DNA of 48,226 bases, from contig CATMOE010000027.1 of assembly GCA_950072105.1 (NCBI GenBank), positions 1-48,226 of the forward strand, written 5' to 3'. The notes under the pieces are model-generated. The model worked only from the letters and a program-made list of their open reading frames with translations. It was not told the DNA's origin and searched no databases. A program made the position numbers and the translations under genes. Within the stretch, counting starts at the first letter, position 1. Every line of letters starts with the position of its first letter. Below are positions 24,253 through 39,336 of this stretch, piece by piece. This DNA is from an uncultured Dehalococcoidia bacterium (GTDB taxonomy: Bacteria > Chloroflexota > Dehalococcoidia > Lucifugimonadales > UBA3495).

Positions 24253-24966
24253 ATGCCATCCTTTACGGATAAGCTCACCGTCAACGGCCATGAAATGGAT
24301 ATGTACGCCAGCGTCCCCAGCGGGTCCGGTCCCTTCCCCGCGGTCGTTATTGCTTTCCATGTCGGAGGCCTGGACGACTTCGACCGGGCAATGGCAGACC
24401 GCTTGGCCGCCGAGGGATACGTGGCCGTGGTCCCGGATTTGTTCCATCGCCTGACCGAGGAGCAAATGAATGGTCCACGATTGGACCGGCTGGGATATTT
24501 GAGCGACCCGGACATAATCGCCGATTGCAACGCCGCGGTCAGCTTTTTGGAAGGCAATTCGGCGGTGGACAGCAACCGCATCGGCGTCACCGGTTTCTGC
24601 ATGGGAGGCCGGGTTGCTTGGTTGATGGCCGCATCAAACCCGGTGTTCAAAGCCACCGTTCCCTACTACGGGGGCCACATCATGCTGCCCTGGGGCGATA
24701 CCACAGAAACACCCTTTGACCTGGCGAGCAACATCAACTGCCCAATGATGTTCCACTTCGGCGCGACCGACGGTAACCCCTCGCCGGATGACCGGGTGAA
24801 ACTAGATGCCGAACTAACCCGCTTGGGCAAAGAGCACGTGTTTTACTCCTACGAAGGGGCAGGGCACGCCTTCATGGACTTCACCAACCCGGACCGCCAC
24901 CACGAAGGGGCGGCGGCGGAATCATGGCCCAGAACCTTAGAATTCTTTGCGACCCATCTAAAGTAA
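24253..24966 (+). CDS. Dienelactone hydrolase family protein (tandem paralog)
   Basis: GFCMGG and AGHAF; extensive identity with 23328-24050. Confidence 0.92.
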   Translation: MPSFTDKLTVNGHEMDMYASVPSGSGPFPAVVIAFHVGGLDDFDRAMADRLAAEGYVAVVPDLFHRLTEEQMNGPRLDRLGYLSDPDIIADCNAAVSFLEGNSAVDSNRIGVTGFCMGGRVAWLMAASNPVFKATVPYYGGHIMLPWGDTTETPFDLASNINCPMMFHFGATDGNPSPDDRVKLDAELTRLGKEHVFYSYEGAGHAFMDFTNPDRHHEGAAAESWPRTLEFFATHLK

Positions 24967-25020: not shown

Positions 25021-25530
25021 ATGGTTAGAGTAAACCTAGACCTAGAGAAAAAAGATGACCTGCAAGTCCTCGGGACAACCGGTTGGAAGATTGCTTCCGG
25101 CCTTGTGCCAGGCGAACCCAACCAGGGACTGGTAGCCGAGATCTTGGCCAGCCCGGCCCGTCTCCCCGATTACGACGATTCATGGTGGGATCAGGATGCC
25201 GACTTTCAGGAACGCCGGTCGGTGGGTTTCACCTTTGCCTGGTATCGCCTGCACATCACCACGCCCGATCAAGTCCGAGGCACGTCCGTCGCTGGAACGC
25301 GGATGGTATTCGAGACCAACGTTGACAATTATGGCGAGATATACATCGATGGCGTGATCGACCGGGTGACCGGCGTCGTCACCGGCAATAACGTGGGGAA
25401 GCGGGGTATCGTTGAAGACAAAGCCGTGCCAGGAACCAGCCACGTAATCGCCGTACTGGTCGCCAACGCCCCCTTGGGAGAGCCGGTCGGCACCATTTTC
25501 ATGCGCTACGCCACGATTGCCTTCGAGTAA
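25021..25530 (+). CDS. Hypothetical protein, possible galactose-binding-like jelly-roll domain
   Basis: YDDSWW, AWYR and VDNYGEIYIDG resemble GH2 sugar-binding domains; AAGGAG RBS. Confidence 0.6.
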   Translation: MVRVNLDLEKKDDLQVLGTTGWKIASGLVPGEPNQGLVAEILASPARLPDYDDSWWDQDADFQERRSVGFTFAWYRLHITTPDQVRGTSVAGTRMVFETNVDNYGEIYIDGVIDRVTGVVTGNNVGKRGIVEDKAVPGTSHVIAVLVANAPLGEPVGTIFMRYATIAFE

Positions 25531-25579
25531 GCGAGCTATCAGCGCTCTACCAATCTTATTGCAGAGATACGCCGAACTG

Positions 25580-25616
25580 CCCCCTTTCGTAAAGGGGGAC
25601 CGAGGGGGATTTCCCC
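25580..25616. repeat. Palindromic repeat, family A
   Basis: CCCCCTTTCGTAAAGGGGGACCGAGGGGGATTTCCCC; near reverse complement of 36935-36972. Confidence 0.8.
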
Positions 25617-25689
25617 ACAACCCCCAACAATCCGTCCACCCATCAACTAGCTGACTGCTGAACGCTGACAGCTTAAAGACGAGGTTAAT

Positions 25690-27174
25690 CTGGTAGCGTC
25701 TTCATTTGCCGGCAAAACCAACGCTCCGGAATTTCCGGTTGGATTGGAGTGGGTTAATACCGACCGGGCCCTAACCAAGGCCGACTTAGCGGGCAAGATC
25801 GTTATCCTGGACTTCTGGACCTACTGTTGAATCAACTGCGCCCACATCTTTCCGCAGTTGCGGAAACTGGAGCGAAAATACGCCAACGAGTTGATGGTGG
25901 TGGGGGTCCACTCGGCCAAATTCCCGAACGAGAAGGTTAAGGACAACCTCCAAAAAGCGGTCCAGCGCTACGAGCTAGGACATCCGGTCGTCAACGACGT
26001 AGACTTTCAGGTTTGGCAGCAGTATGCCTGCCGCGCCTGGCCGACACTGATGTTCATCGACCCCCTGGGCAAGGTCATTGGCAAACATGAGGGAGAGCTG
26101 TCCTACGAGCAGTTCGACACCTTGATAAGCCAGATGGTCGCCGAATTTGACGAAGCAGGCATCCTGGACCGGACCCCGGTCACTTTCGTTAAAGACGAGG
26201 CGCCCGATTCAACGTTGTCTTTCCCGGGCAAGGTGGTGGCGGACTCTGACTCTAACCGGTTGTTTATATCCGATTCCAACCACAACCGGATCATCGTCGC
26301 CACACTAGACGGCGAGGCGTTGAAGGTCGTTGGCTCCGGAGAACCGGGCTTGGTAGATGGAAGCTTTACCACGGCATCCTTCGATCATCCCCAGGGAATG
26401 GTCCTAGTGGGTGACCTGCTCTACGTGGCCGACGCCGAGAACCATGCCATCAGAAGAGTGGACCTGGCCGCGGAGCAAGTTGAGACTATCGCCGGGACCG
26501 GGGCCCAGGGTCCAATGCGGGAAGGGACCGGTCCTGGTTTGCAAACCGAGCTTAACTCGCCCTCGGATCTGGCGTTTCATGATGGCTCTTTGTACATCGC
26601 CATGGCCGGAATGCATCAGCTATGGTCCATGGAGCTGTCCACCGGGACGGTAGGTCCATATGCGGGTAGCGGACGGGAGTCCCTAGACGACGGCCCTCTG
26701 GCCAGCGCAACTTTAGCCCAACCCAGCGGCATAACGTCCGATGGTAACCGGCTCTATTTCGCCGACAGCGAAACCAGCGCCGTCCGCTCCGCCGATCTTA
26801 ATCCCCACGGTAGGGTGCGCACGATTATCGGACTTGGCCTTTTCGAGTTCGGCGACGTTGACGGTTCGGACCACAATATCCGGCTGCAGCACCCCATCGG
26901 ACTCGCTTACCACGACGGCACGATCTACTTGGCCGATACCTATAACCACAAGATTAAAAAGGTGTTGCCGGTGATGCGAAGCTCCTTCACCATGCTGGGT
27001 AATGGGCAGGCGGGCGACAGGGACGGCGCGGGGAATCAGGCCCAGTTCTCCGAACCCAGCGGATTGAGCATCGCCGGCGGGAAGATTTACATCGCCGATA
27101 CCAACAACCACGCGATACGGGTAGCCGATCTCGAAAGCGGAGAGGTAGTAACGCTGAAATTGAGCGGGATATGA
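25690..27174 (+). CDS. Thioredoxin-like plus NHL-repeat protein (NHLRC2/SOQ1-like), probable selenoprotein with Sec at UGA 25828-25830
   Basis: The frame upstream of the tracked ORF reads [13 protein letters not shown]...[22 protein letters not shown]; the family motif is FWTYCCINC. NHL repeats ([26 protein letters not shown]) follow. Start inferred at CTG 25690 behind GAGG. Confidence 0.85.
25849..25866 (+). promoter_or_regulatory. Candidate bacterial SECIS element for the Trx-NHL UGA
   Basis: TTTCCGC-AGTT-GCGGAAA: 7-bp stem, G in the loop, starting 18 nt after the UGA. Confidence 0.55.
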
Positions 27175-37841: not shown

Positions 37842-38695
37842 CGCTGGTTCGAACCGGATGGGCTCTGGATCTGCGCTGGACGCTTGAAACCGTAGCTTTT
37901 CAAGATCGCCTGGGCTCGTTCTCCTAGAAGAAACCGGGCAAATTCCTTCGCCAGTCCGGGGTTAGCCGCGTCGCGTAGAACGGCGATGGGGTATTCGGCC
38001 GCTATGTTTGAACCCTGGGGTATGGACACCACCTGGACTTTTTCCGCCGCATATTCCGTCGCGGCGTCGGTGCGGTAGACGATACCAGCGTCAACTTCTC
38101 CCAAGGCGACTTTTTGGAGGACGCCTCGTACGTTGGGTTCAAGAGTGACTACATTGTCCATGACCCGCGAAGCATATCCGGGTCCCAGCGCTGGGTATTG
38201 GGTCTCCAGGTTTCGGAACAAGGTCAGAGCGTAGCGGCCTGCCGGAACATCTGGCAAGGCCAGGGCCAACTTAACGCCATCACTCGCCAAGTCTTCTAGT
38301 CTTTGTATGTTGACCGCGCTATTTAACCCTGCCAGCGTGCCAGGCAATGGCACAATAACTACCAGACTATTTCCGGCGAAGGGCGCCGGGTTCCCGGCGA
38401 TCAACCCCGCCTCCACCGCCAGGTCCATCTGGCGCCGGTCGGCGGACGCGAAGACGTCGGCCCTGGCGCCGAAATCCAACTGGGTGCGGAGCCTTTGAGA
38501 CCCGGCAAAGTTGAAAGTTACAGATGCGCCCGGGTGCTCTGCTACGAAAGCATCGGCAATCTCAGGGAAAGCGTTGAATAAAGACGCGGCGGCAAAGACC
38601 GTCAGTTCTCTTGAACCGTTTCCGGAAGCCGCATCGGGTTGATAGGCGCATGCTGCCGTGAGCAGCAGCGCCATAACAACGGGCAAGAGACTCAC
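37838..38695 (-). CDS. modA: Molybdate ABC transporter substrate-binding lipoprotein
   Basis: Lipobox TAAC; VFAAASL, FAGS, ADVFASA, VPAGRY and DAGIVYRTD motifs. Confidence 0.92.
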   Translation of the reverse strand: MSLLPVVMALLLTAACAYQPDAASGNGSRELTVFAAASLFNAFPEIADAFVAEHPGASVTFNFAGSQRLRTQLDFGARADVFASADRRQMDLAVEAGLIAGNPAPFAGNSLVVIVPLPGTLAGLNSAVNIQRLEDLASDGVKLALALPDVPAGRYALTLFRNLETQYPALGPGYASRVMDNVVTLEPNVRGVLQKVALGEVDAGIVYRTDAATEYAAEKVQVVSIPQGSNIAAEYPIAVLRDAANPGLAKEFARFLLGERAQAILKSYGFKRPAQIQSPSGSNQR

Positions 38696-39336
38696 AAAGA
38701 ACCGGAGGCCCGGCGGGAGATGTAGTCCGGGGCGCCCCGGACCCGAAATCTCTCCTCGCTGAAACGTTCTACCCAGTGGGCCAAGGGTTGCAGACTGTCA
38801 GAGAACTGGGGGTCGAATTCCCGCCAATTTCTTGCGTGCTCTTCCGAACGGAAGAGGTTCATGCCGGCTCAACGCCAAGGACGGGTCTCGGGTGCCCCTC
38901 CTACATCGGACCGGGTATAACCGACGATAGTATCCGGTGATGCCGATAGCACCTCACCGTCTCGCATCTCTACCGAGATCGCCTCACCGCAATCCAAACA
39001 TGGGCAATCGACACGTATAGTCTCTCCGGGAAACAGCCAGCAGACCGCCAGCGATTCGAACCCTCATTGGGCGAACCATTTCTGTTCGCCGCGCACGGTG
39101 ATCCGGTATTGATTGGGGAGGACATTGAACGGAGGAAATGACACCAGATAATCGGTATCCGGATGCAGCCAGGCCGGAATCCCAGTAGCGATCAGGTCGT
39201 GCAGTGTCTGGCGGCCTTCTTCCAAGGTAAGCCCCAAGTCGGCGGCAAGCTCCGTATAGTGCGGGGCCTGGCCGGTTTCCACCAGGCGCGTCATGATGTT
39301 GGAGAATGCTTTGTCCAGCAACGCCAGCTCTGCCAT
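38692..39336 (-). CDS. MerB (organomercurial lyase)-like protein, 214 aa, with two probable selenocysteines (U91, U156)
   Basis: Reading through UGA 39064-39066 and UGA 38869-38871 gives ...KWFAQ-U-GFESLAVCWLFPGETIRVDCPCLDCGEAISVEMRDG...PWR-U-AGMNLFRSEEHARNW...SGSL*. Length and spacing parallel MerB C96/D99/C159; the final stop overlaps the modA GTG; GGAGG RBS upstream. Confidence 0.85.
38839..38856 (-). promoter_or_regulatory. Candidate SECIS for the second UGA (U156) of the MerB-like gene
   Basis: CTCTTCC-GTTC-GGAAGAG: perfect 7-bp stem, loop begins with G, 12 nt after the UGA. Confidence 0.65.
39036..39052 (-). promoter_or_regulatory. Candidate SECIS for the first UGA (U91) of the MerB-like gene
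   Basis: GCTGGC-GGTCT-GCTGGC hairpin with G-U pairs, 11 nt after the UGA; the GGUCUGC apex resembles the E. coli fdhF SECIS. Confidence 0.6.

Follow-up and report, generated by a model that had tools for sequence, protein, structure and literature searches.

The subject of this work is a gene at 25690..27174 of a stretch of DNA from an uncultured Dehalococcoidia bacterium (assembly GCA_950072105.1, contig CATMOE010000027.1); further on, the whole stretch of 48,226 nucleotides (nt) is called the window, and all coordinates are its positions 1-48,226. The gene codes for a protein made of a thioredoxin-like (Trx-like) domain and an NHL propeller. We conclude that the UGA found in frame at 25828-25830 is very probably decoded as selenocysteine (Sec), at the CxxC redox centre of the predicted protein; of the explanations considered this is the best one overall.

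Reading frame and homology of the protein

When 25600-27174 was translated with TGA as U we saw a single open frame, closed upstream by a TGA (25666-25668) and terminated by another one (27172-27174); its sole internal TGA was that at 25828-25830, in the peptide context DFWTYC-U-INC. With translation table 11 the list of open reading frames (ORFs) holds for this frame just 25858..27174 (TTG start, 438 residues), and this start falls inside the Pfam match to Thioredoxin_8 (residues 35-129 of the read-through protein, 55.3 bits). Counted from 25690, the read-through protein has 494 residues, with the TGA as residue 47, and ends 447 residues past U47, at the end of the propeller. Pfam also reported AhpC-TSA (PF00578) at residues 12-129 (39.8 bits with a cut-off of 26), a match that holds the motif U-I-N-C, and NHL repeats (112 bits). 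In NCBIfam a ResA subfamily model scored 56 bits, under its cut-off; the same search of the protein matched no selenoprotein model and none dedicated to a Sec form of Trx-NHL proteins. The PDB alignment of the Trx-like domain also matched chains of DipZ and ResA.

Among all PDB chains the best match was the lumenal region of Arabidopsis SOQ1 (7djj; E 5.9e-132, query residues 10-494), and human NHLRC2 (6gc1) matched residues 11-487 with E 3.9e-117. Both structures align with the window protein end to end, the shared core being the Trx-like domain (WTYC-C/U-INC) and the six-bladed NHL propeller. Propeller-only constructs matched residues 174-494 (7djm, E 5.5e-81) and 174-487 (6g7w, E 1.3e-66); judging from the alignment to these two, from which the number of six blades is taken, the propeller follows the Trx-like domain directly. 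Of the 46 codons 5′ of the TGA, those from residue 10 (SOQ1) or 11 (NHLRC2) on are aligned with the two structures, and WTYC-U-INC of the query stands over WTYCCINC: U47 corresponds to the second C of CCINC, which is the first Cys of the CxxC pair. In an alignment of ten Sec and Cys forms (A2), C46, position 47 (U or C), I48, N49 and C50 were invariant, as were A116-W117-P118-T119, aligned with the WPT of SOQ1. We take the window protein to be orthologous to the Trx-NHL core that plant SOQ1 and human NHLRC2 share.

The available parts of two publications tell what this core may do. In the preprint 10.1101/2024.11.01.621559 C431 and C434 of the SOQ1 Trx-like domain are named as a disulfide-forming redox pair, and methionine sulfoxide reductase activity is reported for the recombinant lumenal domains; in PMC6107167 the CCINC motif of NHLRC2 is placed in the cleft between the two domains, beside the cis-proline.

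These results agree with an earlier note made from the sequence of the window alone. Its ORF starting mid-domain, with DFWTYC-UGA-INC encoded by the same frame upstream, was borne out by the sequence, the translation and the Pfam match, and its protein of about 494 residues with U47 was recovered with the start at 25690; FWTYCCINC as the family motif is seen in the PDB alignment and in the accessible text of both publications, while the alignment to CCINC of SOQ1 and NHLRC2 supports the proposed replacement of the N-terminal redox Cys by Sec (UxxC).

Conservation of the TGA codon

In the protein database, 118 of the 120 best matches were 426-454 residues long and covered 86-90% of the query, being cut N-terminally at this very place. 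Nine database proteins were fetched: seven start just past the TGA (MHIFPQ..., MNC..., MFPQ...), and the other two are full-length Cys forms (676 and 674 residues) with CCINC. Since 118 of the 120 are annotated too short, selenoproteome counts and domain annotation of marine Dehalococcoidia would be systematically wrong.

The whole genomes of relatives were searched with stops read through. All 23 matches covering the site had exactly one in-frame TGA, at identities from 95% down to 56%. The 23 loci labelled L002-L024 (the window and 22 relatives; L003 is from the congener, genome G001, and G000 stands for the window's genome) all read FWTYC*[IV]NC, and each of the 22 full-length orthologues of the relatives had the same TGA; L025, cut by a contig end, is outside the motif count. 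An even sample of 401 genomes of the phylum gave 82 matches outside the window's genome, 62 with one TGA and 20 without; two of these 20 stop short of residue 47, so that the TGA was present in 62 of the 80 covering matches and absent from 18. At the 29 phylum loci that were extracted the codon was TGA in 27 (once with G for the vicinal Cys) and TGC in two.

Named species genomes gave 75 loci with the motif, 20 with TGA and 55 with TGC or TGT, by a scan whose pattern was matchable by Cys forms only, with proportions biased towards Cys. The named TGA loci came from Dehalococcoidia (16) and, one each, from Chloroflexota, Chloroflexia, Thermomicrobia and an NC10 bacterium; the named records from other phyla were all TGC or TGT. 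We collected 57 homologues with TGC or TGT at the same codon. Bacterial Cys forms (e.g. P0080 and P0093; Planctomycetota, Acidobacteriota and Anaerolineae L077-L150) have an orthologous Trx-NHL core with 41-63% identity to the window protein, and carry CCINC or GCINC where the latter has CUINC.

Variation in the 15 nt 5′ of the TGA was confined to synonymous third positions, and in 70 genomes, with identity falling to about 50%, selection has kept the protein sequence encoded by the upstream 46 codons. Directly ahead of U47 stands Cys in 69 of the 70 Sec forms, L057 alone having Gly; of the 57 Cys forms, 48 have Cys there and nine have Gly. The vicinal Cys is thus not essential. One genome had two copies of the Sec form (G258:C157:31142-32605 and 37864-39327) with identical scores, in opposite orientation and ∼5 kb apart, which could be either an inverted duplication or an assembly artefact.

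A hairpin downstream of the TGA

In bacterial Sec insertion sequences (SECIS) the distance from the UGA to the loop is usually 16-37 nt, and G or U is preferred in the loop. In the window a hairpin with a stem of seven base pairs (bp) begins 18 nt past the UGA, with 25 nt from the UGA to the loop (Table 1); the z-score of its fold was −2.27, and 3 of 200 shuffled sequences folded as well. Of the 23 family- and order-level loci, 21 share all six codons of the stem-loop down to the third positions, the exceptions being L003 (loop change) and L024 (compensated stem changes); codons flanking the hairpin, and those before the TGA, vary freely at synonymous sites.

For 50 Sec forms, 98.6% of the helix cells were paired, versus 33-71% when the partners were slid by 1-3 columns, and three of the seven stem pairs had changed on both sides (24 cells: U-A to C-G, U-A to G-C and C-G to G-C). 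The covariation score was 0.221 versus 0.110 for shuffled data and was matched by none of the 500 shuffles; kinship inflates such shuffle counts, and the slid-partner controls make the fairer comparison. Two Sec forms of other classes, L121 and L134, have an altered peptide with the 7-bp stem retained; one of them has a 5-nt loop and the other a C-G to G-C swap. At this place the Sec form of the NC10 bacterium (L151) has a 7-bp hairpin too, but a different one. No comparable stem was seen in the Cys forms that were folded, L052 and L060 (both from inside the Sec clade) and four others. The Trx-NHL hairpin would make a small, well-covarying example of a bacterial SECIS inside a conserved peptide.

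Selenocysteine machinery and independent contigs

The window's genome (164 contigs, 92% complete, 6% contamination) contains SelA (448 bits), the wing domain of SelB (43.7 bits), SelD (385 bits) and tRNA-Sec (66.4 bits; called by ARAGORN as tRNA-SeC with anticodon tca). The gene selD (G000:C60:2148-3071, L034) has its own in-frame TGA and makes the second selenoprotein gene of this genome. The tRNA-Sec model also matched G000:C11:747-832 (L040), with 47.6 bits against a gathering score of 47; this may be another long-arm tRNA.

The stretch is present in twenty public marine runs. Contigs were compared from four runs of four studies, two RNA and two DNA libraries (presence in an RNA library is no proof of transcription), and no alternative letter was seen at 25828-25830, the summed depths being 69, 1790, 243 and 106. 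Some contigs that do not differ from the window run across the TGA codon, e.g. 25696-25842 and 25815-26160.

Alternative explanations

The evidence that the earlier note had singled out as telling can be set out as follows. TGA/TGY interchange at the aligned position was found both in phylum loci and in named records, and a conserved, covarying hairpin lies 3′ of the TGA; TGC or TGT behind an assembly error was not seen, the independent public contigs carrying TGA, and the genome, for which a lack of selABC had been considered, has selA, selB, selD and tRNA-Sec.

An assembly or sequencing error for TGC or TGT could be thought of, as the assembly is in 164 contigs with 6% contamination and Cys forms of the gene do exist. 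However, the contigs of four independent runs had no alternative letter with summed depths from 69 to 1790, and 69 other genomes have the same TGA; we give this explanation next to no credence. It is also highly improbable that the TGA is a real stop, leaving either a 46-residue leader and a 438-residue protein translated from TTG 25858 or a decaying pseudogene. Such a stop would agree with table 11, in which 25858..27174 is the only ORF, with the truncated proteins that gene callers made in 118 of the 120 best database matches and with the non-canonical start codon upstream in the window. Still, a product from 25858 would have neither the CxxC centre nor the first Trx-fold strand, while selection on the protein has preserved the 46 codons before the TGA in 70 genomes; the truncated starts differ among relatives (MHIFPQ, MNC, MFPQ) and are internal residues in Cys forms, and a pseudogene would not retain one TGA at one codon across the phylum.

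We consider it very unlikely, too, that the UGA is read without selenium, as Trp or Cys, through near-cognate decoding or a reassigned code. Read-through by other tRNAs is conceivable under selenium limitation, and the identity of the inserted residue is inferred from sequence only. On the other side, TGA is a stop in the window's genome, since both the terminator of the gene (27172-27174) and the upstream closure of its frame (25666) are TGA; the complete Sec machinery is present; the codon is at a catalytic Cys position, the classic place of Sec/Cys exchange; and a dedicated, conserved hairpin is lost where the codon is TGC.

Decoding as Sec has weak points of its own. Sec at residue 47 is a sequence-level prediction, and what serves as substrate and electron donor, and what Cys46 does, is proposed by analogy, from the papers on SOQ1 and NHLRC2; in the available part of PMC6107167, NHLRC2 is reported to have no insulin-reductase activity, and the authors of that paper were doubtful that it takes part in thiol-disulfide exchange. 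In the phylum sample 308 of the 401 genomes had SelA (E ≤ 1e-40); it was present in 60 of the 61 carrying the TGA form, the one without it being 93% complete, and in 15 of 18 with the Cys form. In G395, from the window's order, a Cys form goes together with the absence of any SelA candidate. As SelA is so common in the phylum, its co-occurrence with the TGA form discriminates weakly and is simply consistent with Sec. The letters at the site come from contigs, which lose rare variants, and not from raw reads; the counted genomes are kin, and the counts are not independent. The congener L003 has the loop AUUU, without G (CAG to CAT, Q to H); the loop G is present in 47 of the 49 other aligned Sec forms, and loop changes were confined to L003, L047 and L062. 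In Rfam the hairpin had no counterpart; when 25500-26000 was scanned, a snoRNA match at E 0.73, put down to chance, was all that came up. Finally, in the window CTG is followed by GTA, neither codon being a canonical start, so that initiation is presumptive in the window's genome.

Proposed mechanism

If the UGA is read as Sec, then the SelA/SelB/SelD/tRNA-Sec system would decode it at 25828-25830, with insertion directed by the hairpin within the coding sequence (18 nt past the UGA, loop AGUU), and Sec47 would replace the N-terminal attacking Cys of CxxC to give C-U-I-N-C. The Sec47 selenolate could attack an oxidised substrate bound where the Trx-like domain and the propeller form a cleft; candidates for it would be an oxidised protein side chain, a protein disulfide or methionine sulfoxide, the latter as reported for SOQ1. 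A selenenylsulfide would then form with Cys50 (or with the vicinal Cys46), to be re-reduced by the cytoplasmic thioredoxin system, the protein being probably cytoplasmic and without a DsbD-like relay.

Sec is found almost only at catalytic redox positions, and here it is predicted in dozens of orthologues; residue 47 should therefore be the working redox nucleophile in the SOQ1/NHLRC2 family. The idea that Sec supports a real redox role, already put forward in the earlier note, fits this, with predicted Sec at the first Cys of C-I-N-C taken as natural evidence for the nucleophile. NHLRC2 is essential and is mutated in FINCA disease.

Architecture and phylogeny

In all 70 Sec forms the protein stops 431-458 residues past the Sec codon, leaving no C-terminal domain, and a hydrophobic N-terminal segment is never seen, so that they are probably cytoplasmic; 40 of the 57 Cys forms do have such a segment. 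Among the 52 Cys forms with a known end, 33 continue for >540 residues past the motif, which indicates that they carry a C-terminal domain. In comparison with the SOQ1 and NHLRC2 systems the window protein has Sec for the first CxxC cysteine and is without HAD domain, membrane anchor and transit peptide; it also has no C-terminal beta domain with its Cys pair (SOQ1 C1006/C1012). Since the window protein has no signal peptide, membrane anchor or C-terminal domain, it is probably cytoplasmic, whereas SOQ1 is lumenal, and it would have no relay of the SOQ1 type: the DsbD-like transfer from the Trx-like to the C-terminal domain, proposed for SOQ1 in the accessible part of 10.1101/2024.11.01.621559, is impossible within it. 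We treated the C-terminal beta domain as accessory because it is called non-conserved in the available text of PMC6107167.

For a quick maximum-likelihood tree, 123 rows were used after masking of the Sec column, and four short Cys rows were omitted. In this tree 69 Sec forms and five Cys forms fall into one clade of Chloroflexota and Thermomicrobia (SH-aLRT 95), and the NC10 Sec form stands alone among Cys forms; at least four changes of state are required. As the tree is unrooted, gain and loss of Sec are indistinguishable in it. The Cys forms inside the clade share the short architecture without anchor, so this architecture tracks the clade and not Sec as such. The locus of the NC10 form, L151 (candidate division NC10 bacterium CSP1-5), was the sole Sec form found outside Chloroflexota and Thermomicrobia; its place in the tree along with its different hairpin suggests a separate recruitment of Sec.

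One could speculate, with less conviction than doubt, that the Sec forms make a separate, cytoplasmic, two-domain branch of the SOQ1/NHLRC2 family in which a self-sufficient Cys-Sec-x-x-Cys replaced the relay through the C-terminal domain; that they work as a stand-alone selenoenzyme repairing oxidised proteins, e.g. methionine sulfoxide on substrates bound by the propeller; and that there were two or more recruitments of Sec, with different hairpins, one in Chloroflexota and another in an NC10 bacterium. We hold this joint reading to be rather unlikely as a whole. Were it true, the bacterial selenoenzyme would be the most active and tractable member in which to find the long-sought catalytic activity of human NHLRC2.

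The idea of Trx-NHL standing in for MsrB was dropped as a phyletic argument. MsrB (PF01641) was not found in the window's genome, which is 92% complete, and MsrA was found; MsrB is present in both congeners and in 18 of 23 genomes of the same family, most of which also have the Sec form, so that the gap is probably due to incompleteness of the assembly. In the phylum sample MsrB was present in 19 of 80 Trx-NHL carriers versus 149 of 320 non-carriers, a tally in which many carriers belong to one genus and 171 genomes have neither.

Relation to known selenoproteins

The UxxC families with Trx fold listed in Table 1 of PMC13188914 (Prx-like PF00578, thiol-disulfide isomerase-like cd02966, Redoxin PF08534) share with the window protein the Sec in place of the attacking Cys of CxxC and are, likewise, decoded via a hairpin inside the ORF. 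In the available text it is just the redox domain that defines these families, and an NHL propeller is mentioned for none of them; it is by these descriptions that they are set apart from the window protein. 'Prx-like 3' sequences of the GOS set have the motif U-G-x-C, as compared with U-I-N-C of the window protein.

A whole-text word search of this 2026 review of prokaryotic selenoproteins (PMC13188914), as far as its text was available, did not find 'NHL'; nor does this word occur in the 2022 review, in the deep-Sep paper with its four supplements, in the GOS paper or in the BSepDB paper. CUINC, CUVNC, FWTYCU and FWTFCU were absent from the GOS sequence supplements, and NHL, PF01436, PF13905, SOQ1 and CUINC from one BSepDB supplement file (∼4.0 million characters, possibly incomplete). 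The literature search found no paper joining 'selenoprotein' and 'SOQ1'; co-mentions of 'selenoprotein' with 'NHL repeat', 'NHLRC2' and 'SAR202' appeared unrelated, judging by titles and the openings of abstracts. The Sec form of Trx-NHL thus had no name that we could find in the selenoprotein inventories searched, though it could be counted there under a generic 'Prx-like' UxxC family. We regard it as a mechanistically ordinary selenoprotein and a new family member.

Mammalian thioredoxin reductase ends in Gly-Cys-Sec-Gly, a vicinal pair in the flexible tail of a flavoenzyme. It has in common with the window protein a vicinal Cys-Sec able to form a selenenylsulfide; unlike that tail, the pair of the window protein is at the N-terminus of helix 1 of the Trx fold, beside UxxC. 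According to the BSepDB paper, Dehalococcoidia bacterium UBA1141 is among the ten most selenoprotein-rich bacteria; this genome carries a TGA-bearing Trx-NHL orthologue (L085).

Sequence features, start codon and neighbourhood

Table 1. Features of the Trx-NHL gene in the window; roles of residues and the reading of the TGA as Sec are predicted
Feature	Position	Strand	Basis
Whole gene, predicted 494-residue Trx-like/NHL selenoprotein with U47	25690..27174	+	Sequence, translation, Pfam, PDB alignment
Shine-Dalgarno-like GAGG, 5 nt ahead of presumed start	25681..25684	+	Sequence
Presumed start codon CTG, non-canonical	25690..25692	+	Alignment of orthologues
Trx-like domain (TlpA/ResA/DipZ-type), residues 12-129	25723..26076	+	Pfam, PDB alignment
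Cys46, vicinal to Sec	25825..25827	+	C in 69/70 Sec forms
In-frame TGA read as Sec (U47), in place of the first Cys of the CxxC pair	25828..25830	+	Alignment, orthologues, contigs
Cys50, presumed resolving Cys of U-x-x-C	25837..25839	+	Invariant column in alignment A2
SECIS-like hairpin: 7-bp stem 25849-25855/25860-25866, loop AGUU 25856-25859	25849..25866	+	Folding, covariation
Pro118 of the invariant A-W-P-T loop, presumed cis-proline of the Trx fold	26041..26043	+	A2, alignment with WPT of SOQ1
Six-bladed NHL beta-propeller, residues 174-494	26209..27171	+	Alignment to 7djm and 6g7w; NHL 112 bits

The start at 25690 is likely, on the grounds of alignment to the start codons of orthologues. 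The codon aligned to it is ATG in 18 of 23 loci, GTG in one, TTG in one and CTG in the window and the congener L003; ATG is one codon off in L016 (after) and L018 (before). The motif acGAGGt is present at equal spacing ahead of the ATG in several orthologues. The codon after CTG is GTA in the window and GTG in L003. Public contigs have C>T at 25690 in part (giving TTG) and A>G at 25695 in most (giving GTG at 25693-25695): variants of the start codon coexist in the population. The next canonical start in frame, a TTG in G-L-E-W, would delete the conserved segment A-P-E-F-P.

Upstream of the gene there are a dienelactone hydrolase gene (24253-24966) and, directly adjacent, an ORF of 169 residues (25021-25530) without a Pfam match; they are conserved in 14 of 51 loci, all from the window's family. 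Downstream, prmC and prfA are convergent to the gene. The neighbourhood gives no functional lead.

The intergenic segment 25581-25622 just upstream contains a short G/C hairpin, and in all four runs it was covered tens of times more deeply than the adjoining sequence (up to 13,289 versus about 150). Many contigs diverge at 25580 and between 25612 and 25622, and the segment has the look of a short dispersed repeat common to many marine genomes.

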